Part shown: positions 1 to 60,710 of the stretch, in pieces
Numbering within the stretch: position 1 is the first letter of the stretch
Layout: each line of letters begins with the position of its first letter
Source of the DNA: Escherichia phage ManiWeber_Bas99
Length of the DNA: 64,000 bases
Direction: 5' to 3' (one strand)
Sequence record: PQ850618.1
Notes under the pieces: model-generated
The model's database searches: none
What the model was told of the DNA's origin: nothing
What the model saw: only the letters and a program-made list of their open reading frames with translations
Made by a program: the position numbers and the translations under genes

Positions 1-1428
1 ATGTACCAGTTGAATCCTGCTTTAAGAGAAGTCTGGAAGACGAAAGCGCGATACAAAGTCATATACGGCGGTCGTGCATCTTCCAAATCGCACGATGCCG
101 CTGGTTTTGCTATTTATTTGGCGGCAAACTTCAAATTAAAATTCCTTTGCGTTCGACAATTCCAGAACAAGATTTCTGAATCAGTATATACGCTATTAAA
201 AGACAAAATAGAGATTTCTGATTTTAAAGATGAGTTCAATTTATTAAAGAACTCTATTGAACATAAAAGAACAAAATCTGAATTCTTATTTTACGGTATC
301 GCACGCAACGTTGACGAAATCAAATCAACAGAAGGTGTTGACGTTCTTTGGCTTGAAGAAGCGCACGCGCTGACTGAAGAGCAGTGGGACATTATTGAGC
401 CGACAATTCGTAAGGAAGGGTCAGAAATATGGATCATATTTAACCCTGATGAAGAGGCTGATTTCGTCTACCAGAACTTTGTCATGCGACCGCCGAAAAA
501 TGCCATCGTTAAGAAGATTAACTGGCAGGACAATCCATTCTTGTCGCAAACAATGCTGGATGTTATCGCTGGCATGTATGAGCGCGACCCGAAAAAGGCA
601 GAACACGTTTATGGCGGAGTGCCGAAGACAGGCGGCGATAAGTCGGTCATCAACCGTGCATTCGTCAAAGCCGCGCTAAACCTCCACAAACACCCTACGC
701 TGGGATGGAGCTTGTCAGGGTCTAACCGTATAGGCTTCGACGTGGCGGACGACGGCGACGACTTAAACGCCACAGCATTTGTCACAGGCAACGTATTACG
801 TGGCATCAAGACATGGGAAGGTCTGGAAGATGAATTGCTTAAGTCCGCAAGCGGAGTCTGGAAAGACGCATTGACATTCGGCGCATCAATCACCTATGAC
901 GCCATCGGTGTTGGTGCATTTGCTGGTTCAAAATTTGATGAGCTTAATGAGTATGCAATCCATGAAAATCCAACATTCCCAAGAATCGAATTTAATGCGT
1001 TCAACGCGCAAGGTGCTGTTGATGATCCTGATGACGTTTTCCTTGAGTTACCACACGTTGAAATACTCAATAAAGACCATTTCGCAAACATAAAAGCGCA
1101 AAAATGGACTGAGATTGCCGAACGATTCAGGAAGACATATGAGTATGCGACAGGGCAGGCCGTATATCCGACTGATGAGTTGATTTCCATCGACACAGAC
1201 GGCATCCCAGAACTTGGGATTCCTGCTTGGACTGCGGAAGAGATTGAGACGTTTCTTTTTGAGATGTCAGCGCCGCGCAAAGATACGTCTGTTCTTGGTA
1301 AGTTCAAAGTTGAATCGAAAAAAGATATGGCAAAGCGTGGAGTCAAATCGCCTAACAAAGCGGACGCCGCAATCATGGCATTGATGAAACCAATTGTTGC
1401 AGCATCCGGCTTCTTCTCTAACCTTTAA
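1..1428 (+). CDS. terminase large subunit
   Basis: 475 aa; N-terminal Walker A-like GGRASSKSHD as in PBSX/terminase_6 large subunits; followed by portal and MuF-like genes. ORF starts at the window edge, so the true start may lie upstream. Confidence 0.8.
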   Translation: MYQLNPALREVWKTKARYKVIYGGRASSKSHDAAGFAIYLAANFKLKFLCVRQFQNKISESVYTLLKDKIEISDFKDEFNLLKNSIEHKRTKSEFLFYGIARNVDEIKSTEGVDVLWLEEAHALTEEQWDIIEPTIRKEGSEIWIIFNPDEEADFVYQNFVMRPPKNAIVKKINWQDNPFLSQTMLDVIAGMYERDPKKAEHVYGGVPKTGGDKSVINRAFVKAALNLHKHPTLGWSLSGSNRIGFDVADDGDDLNATAFVTGNVLRGIKTWEGLEDELLKSASGVWKDALTFGASITYDAIGVGAFAGSKFDELNEYAIHENPTFPRIEFNAFNAQGAVDDPDDVFLELPHVEILNKDHFANIKAQKWTEIAERFRKTYEYATGQAVYPTDELISIDTDGIPELGIPAWTAEEIETFLFEMSAPRKDTSVLGKFKVESKKDMAKRGVKSPNKADAAIMALMKPIVAASGFFSNL

Positions 1429-1431
1429 CAA

Positions 1432-1671
1432 CTAAAGCATTCCGTGCTGAAGGTCAAGCTTTCTTGCGGCAAACGACCTGGCACGGAATCGCTTACCCGC
1501 TCTTACTGCCTGTCGAATCTTCTTTTGCAAACACTTACGGTCAAAATCGTTGCGGTCGACGGCTTCGAGTAAATCGCGACGCAACGCACCCAGTGTCGAC
1601 TTTTCGGAGACTTCAACGCCCAGCGCGGCTGCAACATCTTTCAAAACATCGAGTTCGGTTAAAGTTCTCAT
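1432..1671 (-). CDS. hypothetical protein, basic C-terminus (79 aa)
   Basis: Minus-strand ORF overlapping the upstream gene by 4 nt (ATGA); no recognisable motif. Confidence 0.4.
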   Translation of the reverse strand: MRTLTELDVLKDVAAALGVEVSEKSTLGALRRDLLEAVDRNDFDRKCLQKKIRQAVRAGKRFRARSFAARKLDLQHGML

Positions 1672-2084
1672 TTGATAATCCCCTTGATGTCTGATTCTGC
1701 CATAAATATTGGAGTGCCGCCGCCAGGAACAATCGAGCGTGTGACCTTGTCAAACATATCGTTTTCTTCAACTTGAATACGATAAAATTTATTTTTGGAT
1801 GAAGATGGGCACAATCCCATAAATTTGCCGATGCCGCGAACGCATTCATCTTCAAAGTATACTGTTTCACCTTGAATGGAGTCGATGTCGTCTACTGGAT
1901 AGACCTTGCGACCCAATAGCCACTCATCCAAAGTCGCCTGCAAGACGTTGCGCGCATCTAAAATCCACGGGTCAATAGTAGCACCTTCATATCGCGCAGC
2001 AGTGGCCTTTGCCAGTTCTTCATATTCGCATACGTTAACGACTTCGCCGTTGTGCAAGACGACAAATACAATTGTTGTGCTCAT
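1668..2084 (-). CDS. hypothetical protein (138 aa)
   Basis: Strong SD AAAGGAG 6-7 nt upstream of ATG; own promoter-like element; opposite orientation to flanking packaging genes. Confidence 0.55.
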   Translation of the reverse strand: MSTTIVFVVLHNGEVVNVCEYEELAKATAARYEGATIDPWILDARNVLQATLDEWLLGRKVYPVDDIDSIQGETVYFEDECVRGIGKFMGLCPSSSKNKFYRIQVEENDMFDKVTRSIVPGGGTPIFMAESDIKGIIK

Positions 2085-2112
2085 TTCAATCTCCTTTCGT
2101 TTGGTTAACTAA

Positions 2113-2140
2113 AATATAACTCAAAATGATACAAAAGCAA
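2113..2140 (-). promoter_or_regulatory. sigma70-like promoter (TTGCTT-16-TATATT) for the minus-strand cassette
   Basis: Read on the reverse complement of the 2085-2213 intergenic region; sits upstream of the 1668..2084 gene. Confidence 0.4.
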
Positions 2141-2179
2141 AATATTTTATGAACTATTTATGATCACCATACATATCAT

Positions 2180-2208
2180 TTGCTTACAAACACATGAATA
2201 TTTATAAT
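2180..2208 (+). promoter_or_regulatory. sigma70-like promoter (TTGCTT-17-TATAAT) upstream of portal gene
   Basis: Hexamers TTGCTT at 2180-2185 and TATAAT at 2203-2208 with a 17-nt spacer in an AT-rich intergenic region. Confidence 0.45.
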
Positions 2209-2246
2209 ATAGATTGATTCCCTTTCACTGTCAGGTGGCGTTAACA

Positions 2247-4622
2247 ATGAAAATTCTTGGCATAAAACTCTGGGAGAAGACGCAACCAGAAGCCGAACCA
2301 GCGGAGATGCCGCCAGGCGACCCATTGGCACCGTTTGAACGCCTTGAAAGGCGCGGCAGCGGTCAACGCTGGGAAAAGACTGAAAGCAATCGACCGACCT
2401 TTAAAACGGTTGATGACTTCCCTTTATATGAGCCTGATATTAATGGCGATGGTGTTGCAATCATAAAAGGTCGTTCAGTCGATTCCGCAACAGTATCCAA
2501 AAAGGTTATGGATAATGCCTTAAAGAACATCAGTTCAGAAGGGCAAGTCAACCCATACACAGTACCTATTCAACTTCAAAACTGGTATTTGTCACAGTCA
2601 TTCATCGGCTATCAAGCTTGTGCCATCATCGCACAGCATTGGCTGGTGAACAAGGCGTGTTCCATGGTAGGCCGCGATGCGGTCCGTAAAGGTTGGGAAG
2701 TCAAATCCAGTTCTGAGTCAGAATTGTCAGTACAGGCAAGCGAACGCCTAAAGCAAATTGATAAAGAATTTAATATCAAAGAGCACTTAGTTGAAGCCGA
2801 ACGATTCAAAAATATTTTTGGTATCCGCGTCATCATATTTGATGTGCGTAGCGATGACCCAGAATATTACAGCAAGCCTTTTAACATTGATGGCGTGACA
2901 AAGGGGTCTTATAAGGGAATCATTCAGGTTGACCCTTATTGGATGATGCCGTTTCTGACGTCTGAAAACACAGCAGACCCTGCATCACAGCACTTCTATG
3001 ACCCAGAATATTGGGTAATCAGCGGACAACGTTATCATCGCAGCCACCTCATAATCTTGCGCAACGATGAGCCAGCTGATATTCTCAAGCCGACTTATAT
3101 TTACGGCGGCATTCCTCTGACTCAGCAGATTTATGAACGCATCTATGCCGCTGAACGTACCGCCAACGAAGCGCCATTGCTGGCGATGTCCAAGCGTACA
3201 ACGACGCTGCGGACCGACGTTGACAAGGCTATTGCCAATGAGCGGTCTTTTGCAGAACGTCTGATGATGTGGATCAAGTACCGCGACAACTATGCAGTCA
3301 AAGTGCTTGGCCAAAAAGAAGAGATGGACCAGTTTGACATCAACTTGTCAGACTTCGACAGCATCATCATGAACCAGTACCAGCTTGTGGCCGCAATCGC
3401 AAAAGTTCCGTCGACCAAACTGCTTGGGACTTCGCCAAAAGGCTTTAACGCCACTGGTGAATTCGAGATGGTCAGCTATCACGAAGAGTTGGAAACGTGC
3501 CAGCAGCATGACCTGACAAAAATTCTCGACCGCCATTACAAAATCCTTCTCAAATCAGAAGGGGTGGATGTCGATGTTAAGGTTGCATGGGAACCAGTTG
3601 GCTCACTTACTGCTACTCAACTTGCAGAAATCAATGATAAGCGAGCCAACACTGGCAAAACTCTTATTGATGCTGGCGTCATTTCTCCTGATGAAGAGCG
3701 CGACCGCATCAAAGACGACAAAAACAGCGGCTACAACCGTCTGCCGGAAGACGCAGCAGAAGAAACCCCAGGGATGTCTCCAGAGAATATGGCATTGCTT
3801 GGCAAGTCTGCTGGTGAAGTCCTGCAAGGTAAGGCCGATATTGAACAGGCGAAAGCTGATGTCGTTAAGATGGGCGGCCAGTTCTATAGCGAAACAGGTA
3901 TTATGCCAGAGGGTGCCGCGCGCGGTGAGTTGGCGGAAAACCCTGACAAAGCGCCTGTCGAAATCAACATGGACGATACCGATGATGAATCAAGCCATCA
4001 GGTTGATGTCCTAACGCAGTTGAAAGAAGGGCTGGAGGGTATTGCGGATTACTACCTGAAAGAAGGTCAGGATGTGGATTTTGACCCTCAAAAAGATTCA
4101 CGGTCGGTGCAACCGTCTACCCTTCCAAGCGTTAAAGGACACGTCGTCAACTTACGCCACAACGTGGGTAAAATGGACGCAGCATCATTACCTAAGATGA
4201 AGTTGCACGGAATGATTCTTGGCATTGAGAATCCGCGAAACAGCATTCGTAGAGGAAACAGCCTTGACGGTGAATGGGCCGTGAAGATGCCGCACCACTA
4301 CGGATTCATCAAGGGCACCAAGGGCGCAGACGGTGATGAAGTCGACTGCTTTGTGGGTCCAAATCTGAAGTCGCCGAAAGTCTTTATCGTGAACCAAAAC
4401 GATAACTACTCTGGCGAGTTTGATGAACACAAGTGTATGCTTGGATTCGATTCAGCAGAAGAAGCGAAAGAAGCTTATCAAGCATCATTTGGTAACGGTT
4501 GGAACGGATTCGACTCAATCCACGAATTAGATGTGAACTCATTCAAGGAGTGGTTGAAGGGTGATTGCTCTCAAGCATACGGAGCACTCAATAATCCTAC
4601 TAATTCACCGAAGCAAGGTTGA
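2247..4622 (+). CDS. portal protein with C-terminal inorganic-pyrophosphatase-like domain
   Basis: About 790 aa immediately after TerL and before the MuF-like gene, the expected portal position; ATG at 2247 preceded by AGGTGG. C-terminal ~130 aa contain HHYGFIKGTKGADGDEVDCFV and AEEAKEAYQASF, resembling the PPase motifs YPxNYGxIxxT..DGDPxDVLV and [12 protein letters not shown]. Confidence 0.7.
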   Translation: MKILGIKLWEKTQPEAEPAEMPPGDPLAPFERLERRGSGQRWEKTESNRPTFKTVDDFPLYEPDINGDGVAIIKGRSVDSATVSKKVMDNALKNISSEGQVNPYTVPIQLQNWYLSQSFIGYQACAIIAQHWLVNKACSMVGRDAVRKGWEVKSSSESELSVQASERLKQIDKEFNIKEHLVEAERFKNIFGIRVIIFDVRSDDPEYYSKPFNIDGVTKGSYKGIIQVDPYWMMPFLTSENTADPASQHFYDPEYWVISGQRYHRSHLIILRNDEPADILKPTYIYGGIPLTQQIYERIYAAERTANEAPLLAMSKRTTTLRTDVDKAIANERSFAERLMMWIKYRDNYAVKVLGQKEEMDQFDINLSDFDSIIMNQYQLVAAIAKVPSTKLLGTSPKGFNATGEFEMVSYHEELETCQQHDLTKILDRHYKILLKSEGVDVDVKVAWEPVGSLTATQLAEINDKRANTGKTLIDAGVISPDEERDRIKDDKNSGYNRLPEDAAEETPGMSPENMALLGKSAGEVLQGKADIEQAKADVVKMGGQFYSETGIMPEGAARGELAENPDKAPVEINMDDTDDESSHQVDVLTQLKEGLEGIADYYLKEGQDVDFDPQKDSRSVQPSTLPSVKGHVVNLRHNVGKMDAASLPKMKLHGMILGIENPRNSIRRGNSLDGEWAVKMPHHYGFIKGTKGADGDEVDCFVGPNLKSPKVFIVNQNDNYSGEFDEHKCMLGFDSAEEAKEAYQASFGNGWNGFDSIHELDVNSFKEWLKGDCSQAYGALNNPTNSPKQG

Positions 4623-4623
4623 T

Positions 4624-5475
4624 ATGGCTTTTAAAGCTTCGAAAAAACGTGAACGCCGCTCACCCGATAGAGTCGGGCGCGGCAGTCCGATAATCCCATC
4701 CAACGCTATTGCGATGGCCTATCGTCGTGAGATGAAAGGTCTTTGCTATGCGATGATTGACGACTATCAAGCAGGAATTGCTGAGTGGCTTGAAAAGAAG
4801 CAGGTTAAAAAGTTCTTTGCGCAAGACTCTGCTGATTCAACTTTTCAGACCTTGATGAAGCGACTGCAACTGAAATGGGCAAAAGCTTTCGCCCGTGTCG
4901 GGTCAAAGATTGCCGCAGATTTCATCAAGTCAGTTGAAAAGGGTGCCACTTCTGCTACATTTGCAAGTCTTAAATCTGCAGGAATAGAAGCGCCAAAAGC
5001 CACATATAATAAATTCGTTGAGAACACTCTTAAAACAAGCGAGACGTTCAACACGACTTTAGTGACTAAGGTTGGCGAAGATATTCACAACAGGGTGTAC
5101 GAAGCGGTGATGCTTTCGCTGACTTCGCCAGACCCAGCGCAACAAGGCACGTCAGGCATTCAGGCGGCATTAAGAAATGTAAAACACTTCTCTGCAAAAC
5201 GCGTAGACCTTATCGCTAAAGACCAAACGAGCAAACTTTATTGCGTATTAAGTGATGAAAGGATGCGACAGAATGGCGTTGAGGAATTTGAGTGGGCGCA
5301 TTCAGGAGCAGGCAAAGAGCCGCGAATATCGCATGAGCATGTCGATGGAATGAGATTCAAGCTTGATGACAAACGCTTATGGGAAGTAGGTGGAGAACTT
5401 AAGTTCAAAAAGGGTGACATCGGTCCTCCTGGATGGGCGATACACTGCAAGTGCAGAAAAATACCAATTATCTGA
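4624..5475 (+). CDS. head morphogenesis protein (Mu gpF / SPP1 gp7-like)
   Basis: 284 aa directly after the portal gene; TerL-portal-F synteny typical of Mu-like head modules. Confidence 0.6.
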   Translation: MAFKASKKRERRSPDRVGRGSPIIPSNAIAMAYRREMKGLCYAMIDDYQAGIAEWLEKKQVKKFFAQDSADSTFQTLMKRLQLKWAKAFARVGSKIAADFIKSVEKGATSATFASLKSAGIEAPKATYNKFVENTLKTSETFNTTLVTKVGEDIHNRVYEAVMLSLTSPDPAQQGTSGIQAALRNVKHFSAKRVDLIAKDQTSKLYCVLSDERMRQNGVEEFEWAHSGAGKEPRISHEHVDGMRFKLDDKRLWEVGGELKFKKGDIGPPGWAIHCKCRKIPII

Positions 5476-5482
5476 GGTCATT

Positions 5483-6403
5483 ATGACGATACCAATCAAC
5501 ACATTCCCTCTATCTGGACAAACTCCAGTCTTGCCTGCGGTGTATGCTAATGGCTTGGCGATTGTCTCAGAATTCACTTCTGATAAAAACTTGATTGTTC
5601 CACTGAGCCCGCCGCTTGCATCGGGGTACAACTCAGTAGGTCAATTCTTTATGATTGGCAATGATGGCGATTCGACCAGCAAGCCTAATCTGACATTGTC
5701 TGTACCTAAGATGAACATCACCGACGTTCAAACTGGCTTGACTGCATCAACAATCACCATTGCTTTTGGAGAAGCAGTGATTATAGGAATGGAGTCTGGA
5801 GGGTCCAAGAATGCTGTCGCCGTTAAGGTAGTCAAATCCAGCGACAACCAATACACTTTACCAGCTGCGACGGCTTCCGTTCTCGGCGGCGTCAAAATAG
5901 GAAGCGGAATAAGCGTCGCAGGTGACGGTACAATTAGCGTCACTCAATACTCATTGCCGATTGCGTCAGCATCTACTTTAGGCGGCGTAAAGGTCGGTAC
6001 AACTCTATCAATTGATGGTTCCGGTGTGCTTAACGCAGCGGCAAGCACCGTCCAGAATGCCACGAACAGTGTTAGCAATCCTCCAACCACTTTGGTTAAT
6101 CTGGCAACATTAAACCTTCCTGCAGGCAAGTGGCTGGTCACGGCAAGCCAATTGACCGTTGCAACAGCAGGCGTTCAAGCGAATACCGGAATTACAGTCA
6201 AATTGTCAACAAGCAATTCAGATATTACGGATGATGCATTTACCATGTCAGCTGGCATTCGGGCTGCAGGTCGTTTCGGCGGCAACATCCCAACAAAAGT
6301 AATTACTCTTGCCGCGCCTGGTAATGTGTATTTAAACTATCAGTGCACCGACGCGTTGACATCTACCGTTTACGGACAGATCACCGCAATTAAGCTGAAC
6401 TAA
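5483..6403 (+). CDS. virion protein with tandem LGGVK(I/V)G repeats (fiber-like)
   Basis: ATG at 5483 with GAGGT SD; two repeats ASVLGGVKIGSGISVAGDGTISV and ASTLGGVKVGTTLSIDGSGVLNA; Gly/Thr/Ser-rich. Confidence 0.45.
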   Translation: MTIPINTFPLSGQTPVLPAVYANGLAIVSEFTSDKNLIVPLSPPLASGYNSVGQFFMIGNDGDSTSKPNLTLSVPKMNITDVQTGLTASTITIAFGEAVIIGMESGGSKNAVAVKVVKSSDNQYTLPAATASVLGGVKIGSGISVAGDGTISVTQYSLPIASASTLGGVKVGTTLSIDGSGVLNAAASTVQNATNSVSNPPTTLVNLATLNLPAGKWLVTASQLTVATAGVQANTGITVKLSTSNSDITDDAFTMSAGIRAAGRFGGNIPTKVITLAAPGNVYLNYQCTDALTSTVYGQITAIKLN

Positions 6404-6589
6404 AGAGGAAGTTATGCAAAAGATTATTCAGTCACGTTATGTTAAAGTGCGAAATATTAATTGCAACTCTTTGCTTTCTTGGAAATGGGCTGTTTATGAC
6501 TCGATGTTGATTGGCGTTTTAGTGGCAGGAGTGCTATTTAATATTCACTGAATTCATCGGCAAAGGATTGCCGAGAGTTTTATACGTAT

Positions 6590-6860
6590 AATGACGTATC
6601 ATCCGTATCAAGTAAGTTGTTGTTTTCAAAAGAATCTTACGGATGATACGGATGATACGCGTTGCCGCCGTACTATATAGGAATTCAAATAAATTAATTT
6701 AAAATTATATATCTAATTTAATTTTATTTTTTTATAAACTCTTATATGTGAAAAGTATCCGTATCATCCGTATCATCCGTATCACACCAGTGATAGCGCG
6801 GCTTATACACCGATACGGATAAAAATACGCCTCATTTTATCCGTATCATCCGTATCACAC
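6590..6860. repeat. iteron-like repeat element A
   Basis: Units of CATCCGTATCA in both orientations (6594-6610 forward, 6639-6660 reverse, 6756-6785 forward triple, 6811-6820 reverse, 6839-6858 forward) around an AT-rich core carrying GAATTC; homologous to the element at 58.7 kb. Confidence 0.6.
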
Positions 6861-6914
6861 TAATAAAGGCGCGGCTATATCGGTTGTTATACATATTCAA
6901 ACCATAATTATTGT

Positions 6915-6943
6915 TTGCCTAAGTTTTTTTCATTAGATATAAT
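6915..6943 (+). promoter_or_regulatory. sigma70-like promoter (TTGCCT-17-TATAAT) upstream of scaffold gene
   Basis: Hexamers at 6915-6920 and 6938-6943 with a 17-nt spacer, about 25 nt upstream of the start codon. Confidence 0.4.
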
Positions 6944-6966
6944 ACACAATACTTATTTGAGGGTGG

Positions 6967-8385
6967 ATGCGAATGCAAACGGCACGCGAAATTGACAAAA
7001 ATGGATTCTTGACGATTATGGGTTGTCCGATTTCGTCATTTGGCATTTTTGATTATTCTGCTGGTCAAGTTGGTCTTGATGGTGATCCGAATCGCATCGT
7101 AAAAGTCTATCGCCCTGAGTCAGCGGTGAAAGACCCCGAAGCGATAGATTCATTCAAAAATATCCCTTTCATCGACAATCACGAAATGCTTTCTGGATTT
7201 GAAGGTGATGAGGATAACACAGCACCCGAAGAGTATGGCGTTGATGGCGTTCTAACTGGCAATGTTTATTATGACAAGCCATGGATGCGCGGCGACCTTA
7301 AAGTGTTTAGCCGTCGTCTGAAGAAGGCCATTGATTCTGGAAAGGTTGACTTGTCTTTGGGCTATGACTGTGAATTCATCATACAGTCTGGAGAGTTTGA
7401 CGGGCAGCCGTATGAAGTGGTACAGACAACTCTTCGCGGCAACCACATTGCTCTCGTGGACGTTGGTCGAGTACCAGGTGCACGGGTGCTGGATGGTCGT
7501 TGCTTTGACCATCTTTGTTTGACGACTGTAACACCATCCAACGAGGATTTAGACATGCCAAAACCGTTAAAAGGTAAAGCGCGTGATAATGCTGTTGAAC
7601 AGCTGAAATCACTGATCCCTGCGCTCGAACAATTTCTGAATGAAGAGAGCACCGAAGCGGCTCATCAGGACGAAGTTGAAGTGAAAGCAGAAGAGAAGGA
7701 TTCAACCGAAGAACGTGAAGAAGTGATGGTTGATCCAGAAGTTAAAGCAGAAGCTGAAGAAACTCCAGAAGGTGAAGAGAAGTTTGAAGTTGAAACTGAA
7801 TCTCACGCTGGCGGCGAGCTTCCGCAACTGATCAGCCAAATCGAAGCACTTATTGCAAAACTGAAAGGTGGCGCGGTAGGTGATGAAGAAGAAGTTGAAG
7901 CCGAAGTCAAAGACGAAGAAGTTGAAGTCAAGGCTGAAGATGTATCACCTTGCGACAAAGCTGAAGATGTGGTTAGCGGCCTGCAAAACAGCAACGTAAA
8001 GGGGGCTTCGGTCGAAAAAGATGACAAACCGACAAAAGCGGCGAAAGCGTCGCCAGGTCCAGCAAAAGGGGAACACTCAATGGCATCTGATTCAGCAGTT
8101 GCTGCTTTCTACGCTGATTCTGCTCGTAAGAATAGCCTCTACCAGCGCCTGTCTAAAGTTGTTGGTGCCTTTGATCATGCAACTATGGACTCCAAGTCCG
8201 TAGCGAAATATGGCGCTAAAAAGTTAGGCTTGAAGTGCGTTGATGGTGCTGAGTTTGACGTGGTGGATAATTATCTGCGCGGCGTTGAACACGGTCAAAA
8301 ACAGCGTGTAGTCGCAAAACAAAAGGCCGCTGCGGATTCTGCAGCGACTGACGAAGCATTTGAAGCTTGGTTGAAAGGGGAATAA
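6967..8385 (+). CDS. scaffolding / prohead core protein
   Basis: 472 aa; N-terminal region resembles DUF2213-type phage head proteins (from memory, unverified); central acidic Glu/Lys/Val repeats typical of scaffold proteins; lies upstream of the capsid gene. Confidence 0.5.
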   Translation: MRMQTAREIDKNGFLTIMGCPISSFGIFDYSAGQVGLDGDPNRIVKVYRPESAVKDPEAIDSFKNIPFIDNHEMLSGFEGDEDNTAPEEYGVDGVLTGNVYYDKPWMRGDLKVFSRRLKKAIDSGKVDLSLGYDCEFIIQSGEFDGQPYEVVQTTLRGNHIALVDVGRVPGARVLDGRCFDHLCLTTVTPSNEDLDMPKPLKGKARDNAVEQLKSLIPALEQFLNEESTEAAHQDEVEVKAEEKDSTEEREEVMVDPEVKAEAEETPEGEEKFEVETESHAGGELPQLISQIEALIAKLKGGAVGDEEEVEAEVKDEEVEVKAEDVSPCDKAEDVVSGLQNSNVKGASVEKDDKPTKAAKASPGPAKGEHSMASDSAVAAFYADSARKNSLYQRLSKVVGAFDHATMDSKSVAKYGAKKLGLKCVDGAEFDVVDNYLRGVEHGQKQRVVAKQKAAADSAATDEAFEAWLKGE

Positions 8386-59166: not shown

Positions 59167-59655
59167 ATGGGATTTTGCACTATGAGTCAAGATTATGTAG
59201 CGATGCCTGAAGACTTTGAAGACCCGCGATTTGCAGAGCACAATCAGGCTTTATTCGATGAGTTCATTGACCTTGTTATTCAGGGCCATGACATGCGCGC
59301 AGCTTTTGCACTAGTATTTGGAATGGAAGTTGCAACGGATAACTACACTGGCCAGCGAATCCTTTGCACGCAACGCAATCCATACTACAAGATGCGCTTC
59401 AAAAAGCGTATGGAAGAGATGCCACTCAAGGATTTGTGGAGCGTAAAAGGTGCAATTCACAATTTGGTTAAGCTTGTGCGTGATCCAGAAGTCGCAGCGT
59501 CAGCCAAGCTTAATGCTATTCGTGAACTGAATATCATCTACGGCATCACGATGATTGATGAAAACGGCAATAGTAAAATGGGCCGTTCCATGGACGATTT
59601 CTACAAGGATTTTGGAGAGGCGGCCAAAGAAGGTGAGCAATTCTCCCGCCACTAG
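59167..59655 (+). CDS. hypothetical protein
   Basis: 162 aa (alternative ATG at 59182); both candidate starts are immediately preceded by a copy of the TTTGCACTAT motif. Confidence 0.45.
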   Translation: MGFCTMSQDYVAMPEDFEDPRFAEHNQALFDEFIDLVIQGHDMRAAFALVFGMEVATDNYTGQRILCTQRNPYYKMRFKKRMEEMPLKDLWSVKGAIHNLVKLVRDPEVAASAKLNAIRELNIIYGITMIDENGNSKMGRSMDDFYKDFGEAAKEGEQFSRH

Positions 59656-60083: not shown

Positions 60084-60710
60084 TTAGATAATCTGGAAGG
60101 TGTAGGACTTGTTGCCGAACTCGAAGTTCAAGCGCCCAGCTTCCTTAAGCTTCATGCGGAAGCGAATGTGCTTGCTATCCGGTAATCCCAGCGCGGCGAA
60201 CGCTACGCGGACCGATTTGAACTCGCCTACACCCTCGACCATGACACCGTTACGGGTAAGACGCTTTTGCGCCACTTCCTTATTATCCCAGCTTTTTGCA
60301 ATACCTTCGCTATTCGAACGGCGATGGGAAGGAGTTCCATTTTGCACTACGCAATTTGCACTATCGTTTAAACCGCTCTTAACGAAGGCTTCATATTCTT
60401 CGTCGGTCATCGCGTCGAGTTCTTCCTGGGTCGGCTCAGCCTTTTTAACGACCGCACGCGCCTTATGCGTTTTTACATCGCTGGACACTTCCTCGCGCGA
60501 CTTCGCGTCTGGGATGGGCGATTCGTTGGACGGCTCATCTAGCGCGTTTAAGGACTCGATTAACGCGATGACGCGAGTCTCAGCGGTCCGGCGGTCCGAA
60601 AATTTCTTAATCGGCTTCGAACCGGAATTTGCATTATAAAATGCAACGAGGTCGGCGGTCTTAGTTGCGATAACGTCGCCGCTAGTCGAGAAACGATTTA
60701 AGCTAACCAT
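60084..60710 (-). CDS. hypothetical acidic protein
   Basis: 208 aa; SD AGGAG upstream of ATG; carries the motif as DSANCVVQ. Confidence 0.5.
   Translation of the reverse strand: MVSLNRFSTSGDVIATKTADLVAFYNANSGSKPIKKFSDRRTAETRVIALIESLNALDEPSNESPIPDAKSREEVSSDVKTHKARAVVKKAEPTQEELDAMTDEEYEAFVKSGLNDSANCVVQNGTPSHRRSNSEGIAKSWDNKEVAQKRLTRNGVMVEGVGEFKSVRVAFAALGLPDSKHIRFRMKLKEAGRLNFEFGNKSYTFQII

Follow-up and report, generated by a model that had tools for sequence, protein, structure and literature searches.

The stretch of DNA that was analysed, referred to here as the window, comprises 64,000 nucleotides of Escherichia phage ManiWeber_Bas99 and begins with the ATG start codon of TerL, which encodes the large terminase. 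The phage belongs to Wifcevirus, a genus of E. coli and Shigella myoviruses of about 68 kb. Identity of the window to Escherichia phage EC150 and other Wifcevirus was 98.9%, and the first 5 kb were 92-99% identical to 28 Wifcevirus records, among which EC150, WFH, ECML-117, FEC19 and the BASEL isolates Bas98, Bas100 and Bas101. The Pseudomonas phages of the genus Pbunavirus are distant relatives of Wifcevirus (BASEL paper, PMC11990801).

Two small genes, designated ORF-A and ORF-B, are located on the minus strand between TerL and the portal gene (Table 1). ORF-B and TerL are convergent, with their stop codons 3 nt apart, and ORF-A is divergent from the portal gene, with which the plus-strand structural block begins. 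The original prediction, made from the letters of the window, described this pair as a cassette interrupting a plus-strand packaging operon. Comparison with relatives does not bear this out, as TerL stands alone on the plus strand in phages Mansfield, Kyle, tabernarius, 14-1 and E217, flanked on either side by genes of the minus strand.

Table 1. Position of the genes and regulatory features between TerL and the portal gene, and of the small terminase gene, in the window.
Feature	Position	Strand	Remarks
Large terminase (TerL)	1..1428	+	Pfam Terminase_3, E 3e-37
Weak terminator-like hairpin in the 3' end of TerL, downstream of ORF-B	1364..1381	-	5-bp stem; fold z-score -1.97
ORF-B	1432..1671	-	79 aa, pI 10.34
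ORF-A	1668..2084	-	138 aa, pI 4.62
ORF-A/portal divergent regulatory region	2085..2246		162 bp, AT-rich; nearly invariant within the genus
Shine-Dalgarno sequence of ORF-A, AAAGGAG	2091..2097	-	Spaced 6 nt from the ATG; identical in five Wifcevirus loci
Leftward promoter-like site, TTGCTT-16-TATATT	2140..2113	-	Would drive ORF-A and ORF-B; hexamers invariant in five Wifcevirus loci
Rightward promoter-like site, TTGCTT-17-TATAAT	2180..2208	+	Would drive the portal gene and structural operon; hexamers invariant in five Wifcevirus loci
Portal protein with C-terminal InPase domain	2247..4622	+	Pfam Phage_portal_3, E 3e-88; InPase, E 3e-46
Small terminase (TerS)	59167..59655	+	162 aa; 41% identity to E217 gp78 (tblastn); E 6e-34 versus PDB 7UXE

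The two ORFs, the ATGA overlap between them and the consensus Shine-Dalgarno sequence of the first gene were all found where they had been predicted, and the description of a small acidic protein with a small basic partner agrees with the calculated isoelectric points. The stop codon of ORF-A and the start codon of ORF-B share the ATGA (tcat on the plus strand, 1668-1671), through which ORF-B is probably translationally coupled to ORF-A. ORF-B also has a ribosome-binding site of its own, AAGGGGA, 8 nt before its ATG. Upon comparison with Bas98 and with a more divergent Wifcevirus contig (L087), the dN/dS ratio was 0.07-0.12 for ORF-A and 0.06-0.09 for ORF-B, with values of 0.012-0.018 for TerL and portal in the same comparison. 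Because of these ratios (0.06-0.12), ORF-A and ORF-B are real protein genes under purifying selection. At the convergent TerL/ORF-B junction no clear terminator was found, only weak hairpins with z-scores from -1.7 to -2.0; the hairpin in the 3' end of TerL (Table 1) is a possible end of the ORF-A/ORF-B transcript.

The intergenic region between ORF-A and the portal gene had been predicted to be 128 bp long and to hold divergent sigma70-like promoters. Both sites are present, but the gap measures 162 bp, the portal start being the ATG at 2247 as annotated in Bas98 and Mansfield. A TTG codon at 2214 lies approximately where a transcript from the -10 box at 2203-2208 would begin, and would thus be unusable as portal start if the rightward promoter is used. 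Among five Wifcevirus loci, five of the 162 positions vary, versus 22-49% of the third-codon positions of the flanking genes, and none of these five is situated within a promoter hexamer or the Shine-Dalgarno sequence. The part from 2085 to 2213 is 100% identical to Bas98; such conservation is not special to this gap, 100% identity to Bas98 being found in several other intergenic regions with promoters as well.

A generic sigma70 scan of positions 1-7000 gave 12 sites versus 11.9 in shuffled sequences, so without an excess, and resemblance to the consensus alone therefore proves nothing. The more specific pattern TTGCTT-N15-18-TAWWWT occurred eight times in the window versus 0.57 expected, a number reached by none of 100 shuffles. 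With a relaxed pattern, 10 of the 21 matches were located in non-coding DNA, which makes up 7% of the window. These non-coding matches precede replication and structural genes alike, so the TTGCTT class is no indicator of early or late expression. A class of phage promoters sharing TTGCTT as -35 element is a useful by-product of this analysis.

Back-to-back promoter-like sites in the ORF-A/portal gap were also observed in Pantoea phage Kyle and in the metagenomic contigs L007 and L089. On the ORF-A side, sites of similar form were found in these three phages. Comparable sites on the portal side were present in Kyle, L007, 14-1 (a clear one) and L089, and in L014 a TATAAT is found at this place; the GenBank record of 14-1 lists a sigma70 promoter in front of the portal gene. 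The divergent promoters at 2113-2140 and 2180-2208 are regarded as well supported, though unproven, predictions. The proposal that the cassette has its own promoter is supported to this extent: ORF-A and ORF-B would form a separate leftward transcription unit, whose promoter-like site faces that of the portal gene across a conserved regulatory region.

Neither protein matched any Pfam, NCBIfam or PADLOC family at E-values up to 1, apart from sub-threshold noise (PADLOC covers defence proteins only). A scan against PHROGs yielded only weak hits with phrog_5124 and phrog_2130, both families of unknown function, and searches of PDB sequences with the ORF-A and ORF-B family profiles gave nothing below E 0.25. 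An AlphaFold2 model of ORF-A, based on an alignment of 15 sequences (pLDDT 75.7), shows a beta-beta-alpha-beta domain at the N-terminus (residues 1-43) and a beta-barrel at the C-terminus (about 61-138), joined by a linker of low confidence (46-58). The barrel is five-stranded and strongly bent, and is predicted to be of the SH3/Tudor/Sm-like type. It resembles the members of the SH3-like barrel superfold (Sm/LSm, Tudor, PWWP, KOW and chromo domains) at 3-20% identity, a match without specificity at the level of a family, and the N-terminal domain gave no match of its own in the fold search. In BFVD, the only significant match of ORF-A was its own family; matches with T4-like ‘transcriptional regulators’ were non-significant (E 0.06-0.17, TM about 0.3) and were not relied on. 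The residues invariant in the ORF-A family are W40, G72, D79, G84, G86, I133 and G135. Since these are glycines, a tryptophan, hydrophobic residues and a single aspartate, ORF-A would be a binding protein rather than an enzyme.

The charge of ORF-B is concentrated in its basic C-terminal 35 residues (45-79), with a pI of 12, and its N-terminal half is acidic. The AlphaFold2 model, of moderate confidence like that of ORF-A (pLDDT about 76), was built on a very shallow alignment of three near-identical sequences. From this model, ORF-B is tentatively taken to be helical and SAP/HeH-like, with a basic tail, the N-terminal half fitting the bipartite SAP/HeH pattern by eye. The Pfam profiles SAP, Rho_N and HeH found no match in five ORF-B family members, even at E-values up to 10. 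Compared with the SAP/HeH domains of Siz1, PIAS1 and FAN1 and with the N-terminal subdomain of Rho, helix 1 of ORF-B appears two residues shorter than the canonical SAP helix, and two extra helices are added, one of which is strongly basic.

The distribution of both genes was determined among related phages. ORF-A and ORF-B were present in all 28 Wifcevirus records with 94-100% amino acid identity, and are thus fixed in this genus. In Pantoea phage Kyle, the orthologues are KYLE_28 for ORF-A (BLASTP E 7e-10) and KYLE_26 for ORF-B (E 6e-11), separated by KYLE_27, which encodes a lipoprotein-type serine protease, and followed by two more genes. A protease gene is likewise present between both homologues in the Kyle-like contig L007. 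An exhaustive HMMER search with ORF-A returned only four further related clusters at 50% identity and one probably spurious match, with P0014, a repeat protein of 1410 aa. The ORF-A family profile recognised the Pseudomonas phage proteins Epa7 gp61 and HTN3 (E 1e-33 to 1e-34), and upon iteration also ORF16 of phage 14-1 (E 2e-34). In total, the family was found in 298 Pbunavirus records. Homologues were also detected in a metagenomic phage lineage of 67.7 kb (L089-L091) and in L014 (iterated profile, E 1e-20). The orthologues of ORF-A are thereby 14-1 ORF16 and E217 gp18 (locus tag) in Pbunavirus, and Kyle gp28; the homology with 14-1 ORF16 and Kyle gp28 is significant over the full length. 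ORF-B was detected only in Wifcevirus, Kyle and L007. No homologue of ORF-B was found among the island proteins of 14-1, nor was one detectable in Pbunavirus.

In the window, Kyle, L007, the Pbunavirus loci (L009, L010, L017, L086 and L092), L089-L091 and L014, the ORF-A family member invariably comes first among the genes diverging from the portal gene. A search of 5,426 complete E. coli genomes and of the PLSDB plasmids gave no match with the DNA of the cassette. This distribution rules against the accessory insertion that was originally proposed: both genes occur in the whole genus, ORF-A occupies the same position in Kyle, 298 Pbunavirus records and two metagenomic lineages, and the DNA is absent from E. 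coli genomes and plasmids. Patchy presence among close relatives, by which a moron or an anti-defence insertion is recognised, was not observed, with the pair found in 28 out of 28 Wifcevirus records. The original prediction had named universal conservation in relatives, combined with an assigned structural or packaging role, as the finding that would speak against it. The first half of this was found, since the genes are conserved across relatives; a structural or packaging role is not assigned to them.

A set of 80 related viral contigs was gathered via TerL, and portal proteins with at least 45% identity were taken as closely related. In the phages with such a portal protein, TerL and the portal gene are 0.5-6.6 kb apart, and this space is filled mostly with minus-strand genes. 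Among the recurrent members of this island are a DUF2786/DUF7168 protein of about 250 aa and a CxxC zinc-finger protein of about 305 aa, belonging to the 14-1 ORF12 family. In distant relatives, with TerL about 50% identical and genomes of 40-50 kb, TerL is followed by the portal gene within 200-400 bp. Because of the minus-strand-filled gap of 0.5-6.6 kb found across relatives, the TerL-portal island is an old and variable feature of the whole Pbunavirus/Wifcevirus/Kylevirus group. ORF-A, with which transcription away from the portal promoter always begins, is the anchor of this island, and the island of Wifcevirus, with only ORF-A and ORF-B, is the smallest ORF-A-bearing version found. No island genes of Pbunavirus or Kyle were found elsewhere in the window by tblastn, a search of low sensitivity. 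For Pbunavirus, two island genes, gp12 and gp11/YIP, have been described as early-region genes. The gp12 of 14-1 has been described as an inhibitor of transcription, presumably interacting with the alpha subunit of RNA polymerase, gp11 (YIP) of the same phage binds the diguanylate cyclase YfiN, and in a screen of 38 Pbunavirus early ORFans few were growth-inhibitory (PMC8085984; PMC10914365).

Several other explanations for the pair were considered. A small terminase encoded on the opposite strand beside TerL would be in line with the fact that no small terminase is annotated in the Wifcevirus records, and ORF-B is a small predicted DNA binder adjoining TerL. However, the TerS of E217, of which the structure has been solved (gp78, which matches PDB 7UXE at E 2e-126), has a clear homologue in the ORF at 59167-59655, and neither ORF-A nor ORF-B matches any terminase family or PDB chain. 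As the small terminase is encoded elsewhere, this explanation can practically be dismissed. In E217, the TerS gene lies about 58 kb from TerL (PMC9611059), and the separation of both genes in the window matches that arrangement. The location of the previously unannotated small terminase of Wifcevirus is a useful by-product; another ORF considered for this function, at 60084-60710, gave no PDB match. A toxin-antitoxin, anti-defence or exclusion pair had been suggested in the original prediction. As in type II toxin-antitoxin operons, a conserved promoter region is followed in the cassette by two small genes that overlap by 4 nt, an acidic protein being encoded first and a basic one second; on this reading ORF-A would be the antitoxin and ORF-B the toxin of a coupled, autoregulated operon. 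The cassette differs from these operons in that no match of either protein with a toxin or antitoxin family in Pfam, NCBIfam or PADLOC was obtained, in that the pairing is not obligate (split by the protease gene in Kyle and L007, and with ORF-A lacking ORF-B in the 298 Pbunavirus records), and in that no copy of it was found on E. coli chromosomes or on plasmids. In addition, the model of ORF-B is helical and SAP-like and would correspond to no known toxin fold, and the screen of Pbunavirus early-region ORFans revealed very few growth-inhibitory proteins (PMC8085984, in which inclusion of the ORF-A orthologue is not stated). With the homology lacking, the genes separable and bacterial copies absent, the toxin-antitoxin reading fails and is judged highly improbable.

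A role in anti-defence or superinfection exclusion, in which ORF-A, ORF-B or both would neutralise host immunity or block competing phages early in infection from their own promoter, would suit small uncharacterised proteins encoded in a region with a gene content that differs strongly from genus to genus. Wifcevirus phages are considerably resistant to restriction in E. coli K-12 (PMC11990801) and several anti-defence genes are known in Pbunaviruses (PMC12390725). Those of Banzai are numbered 071rev, 087 and 105, with the structural genes at 018-048 and TerL at 001 (PMC12390725), and by these locus numbers they are situated outside the TerL-portal island. The presence of the pair, moreover, is invariant in Wifcevirus. 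Counter-defence genes track host immunity; conservation of ORF-A across phages of Escherichia, Pantoea and Pseudomonas would be unusual for such a gene, and an anti-defence role fits poorly with it. This role is therefore considered unlikely. The constant position of ORF-A beside the portal gene would equally fit a function in head assembly or in regulation of the structural operon, with ORF-A aiding or regulating the portal operon and ORF-B aiding DNA handling during packaging. Consistent with this, the module formed by ORF-A, the divergent promoters and the portal gene is conserved in at least five lineages, mutual regulation is common between neighbouring genes with divergent transcription, the barrel of ORF-A resembles the KOW and Tudor domains that contact the transcription machinery, and ORF-B is predicted to bind DNA. 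On the other hand, the small terminase is a different gene, gp18 (the ORF-A orthologue of E217) is not named in the main text of the cryo-EM paper on the E217 virion, in which 19 gene products were built, and ORF-B, being absent from Pbunavirus, is no universal packaging factor. Beyond the generic barrel, no specific match with CarD, Mfd or NusG was obtained either. A head-assembly, packaging or late-operon factor is thus kept as a minor possibility. A bolder variant, in which ORF-A and ORF-B are a phage-specific regulatory pair for the divergent promoter region, appears quite unlikely: ORF-B would bind the 162-bp region and ORF-A would make contact with RNA polymerase or with the transcript being formed, jointly controlling or sustaining transcription of the structural operon of about 26 kb. 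If true, ORF-A would be a hitherto unrecognised transcription factor, conserved widely within a phage group of therapeutic importance.

The likeliest explanation, in our opinion, is that the two phage genes of the cassette are non-structural and make up a conserved unit transcribed leftward, the Wifcevirus version of the group-wide minus-strand island between TerL and portal. For this conserved unit, a sigma70-type promoter at 2140..2113 would produce a bicistronic ORF-A/ORF-B mRNA with a short leader. ORF-A would be translated from its strong Shine-Dalgarno sequence, and ORF-B by coupling through the ATGA overlap. According to the structural models, ORF-A may act as a non-enzymatic adaptor, its SH3/Tudor/Sm-like barrel binding a protein or nucleic acid partner, and ORF-B may bind DNA with a SAP/HeH-like helix-loop-helix and its Arg/Lys-rich tail. 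By analogy with other island genes of Pbunavirus, both would serve phage development, for example in transcription, DNA handling or host takeover, rather than act as a toxin-antitoxin or defence module.

The backward-facing pair is then a minimal form of the island shared with Pbunavirus and not a recent mobile insertion, which is mainly a matter of tidying the annotation. It also links ORF-A of Wifcevirus with an orthologue that about 300 Pbunavirus genomes carry, in each case next to the portal gene. As Pbunavirus is a genus widely used in phage therapy, ORF-A is a conserved core gene worth characterising. Both genes were already present in public records as hypothetical proteins, and nothing in the results on ORF-A and ORF-B challenges current understanding.

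The arrangement mirrors a known feature of Pbunavirus, where a minus-strand cluster (ORF05-ORF16 in 14-1, gp6-gp18 in E217) is likewise located between a solitary TerL and a structural operon led by the portal gene. In 14-1, ORF16 adjoins the portal gene ORF17 and heads a cluster which runs from ORF16 to ORF05 and ends at TerL (ORF04), so that the homologue of ORF-A (profile E about 1e-34) takes the same promoter-proximal slot. Back-to-back promoter-like sites in the gap are also shared by most lineages of the group that were examined. The islands differ in size, with 12-13 genes in Pbunavirus versus two in Wifcevirus, and in content: Wifcevirus lacks gp12, gp11/YIP and the DUF2786 protein, whereas Pbunavirus lacks ORF-B. 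The island of Kyle (Kylevirus, genes 24-28) has both ORF-A (KYLE_28) and ORF-B (KYLE_26), in equal order and orientation beside the portal gene. It differs in the protease gene KYLE_27 between them and in two further genes, one of which encodes a DUF2786-like protein of 249 aa. Because KYLE_27 separates both genes in Kyle, the coupling of ORF-A and ORF-B through the ATGA overlap would be specific to Wifcevirus.

Gene A, the promoter-proximal gene of the leftward two-gene unit (A and B) between the large terminase gene terL and the portal gene, was found to be markedly divergent in L087, a Wifcevirus genome present as a 68.6 kb contig (ABADYA010000024.1) within E. coli assembly GCA_018093385.1. 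Gene A showed 80% nucleotide identity between L087 and the window with a dS of 0.94, while B, terL and the portal gene were far less diverged (91–93% identity, dS 0.3–0.5) and the intergenic region between A and the portal gene was 97.5% identical. Because A is so much more diverged than its surroundings, this comparison of sequences suggests a recombination patch limited to this gene.

Two proteins recur in the variable islands of mostly minus-strand genes at this position in related phages (TerL-portal gaps of L001, L007, L008, L010, L011, L014, L016, L018, L024-L026 and L089): a DUF2786/DUF7168 protein of about 250 aa with the motif KIKERIAKLL...SPNEAAIAA, and a CxxC zinc-finger protein of about 305 aa belonging to the 14-1 gp12 family. 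Neither was found in the window by tblastn.

At the other end of the unit, the stop codons of terL (TAA, 1426-1428) and B (TAG, 1432-1434, read on the minus strand) converge with just 3 nt between them. Only weak hairpins and no clear bidirectional terminator were found at this junction (1426-1434). Given this spacing and the lack of a clear terminator, the leftward A-B transcript and the terL transcript may overlap as antisense RNA.

The leftward and rightward promoter-like sites within the divergent A-portal region belong to a class, wwTTGCTTw-N15-18-TAWWWT, that is enriched in the window, with eight strict matches against 0.57 expected. Sites of this class cluster in intergenic regions 5' of replication genes and structural genes alike, and the gaps bearing them are typically 100% conserved with the relative Bas98. 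The TGCTT core with its A/T-rich 5' flank resembles the MotA box of T4 middle promoters.

Features located in the window
Feature	Position	Strand	Remark
GTTAAC-centred palindrome	2100-2113		leader of A
Inverted repeat, AAATGATA paired with TATCATTT	2124-2131 / 2174-2181		
TTGCTT-class site	2140	-	
TTGCTT-class site	2180	+	
TTGCTT-class site	21277	+	
TTGCTT-class site	42584	-	
TTGCTT-class site	46293	-	
TTGCTT-class site	47472	+	
TTGCTT-class site	48661	+	
TTGCTT-class site	51115	+	
TTGCTT-class site	61174	-	
InPase domain of portal protein	residues ~648-770 of 2247-4622 product	+	PF18823, E 3e-46
Small terminase homologue, 162 aa	59167-59655	+	PDB 7UXE, E 6e-34, 41% identity

Short inverted repeats are also present in the divergent promoter region. 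In the AAATGATA/TATCATTT repeat, one arm falls within the leftward promoter's spacer, and its partner directly adjoins the −35 box of the rightward promoter. This repeat and the palindrome could be operator sites, or could have arisen by chance in AT-rich DNA.

The portal protein bears a C-terminal 'InPase' (inorganic pyrophosphatase-like) domain. Portal homologues of Pantoea phage Kyle and of tabernarius are of similar length (about 800 aa), and those of L087 and L089 have the identical Pfam pair on record. In the cryo-EM model of Pbunavirus E217, the portal was built for residues 97-528 of 765 only.

A small terminase is missing from the Bas98 annotation and from the examined region of Mansfield, another relative. 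The ORF at 59167-59655 encodes a protein with clear homology to the solved small terminase of E217; its Bas98 counterpart, Bas98_0096, is labelled only 'hypothetical protein'. As in E217, the small terminase gene of the window is distant from terL.
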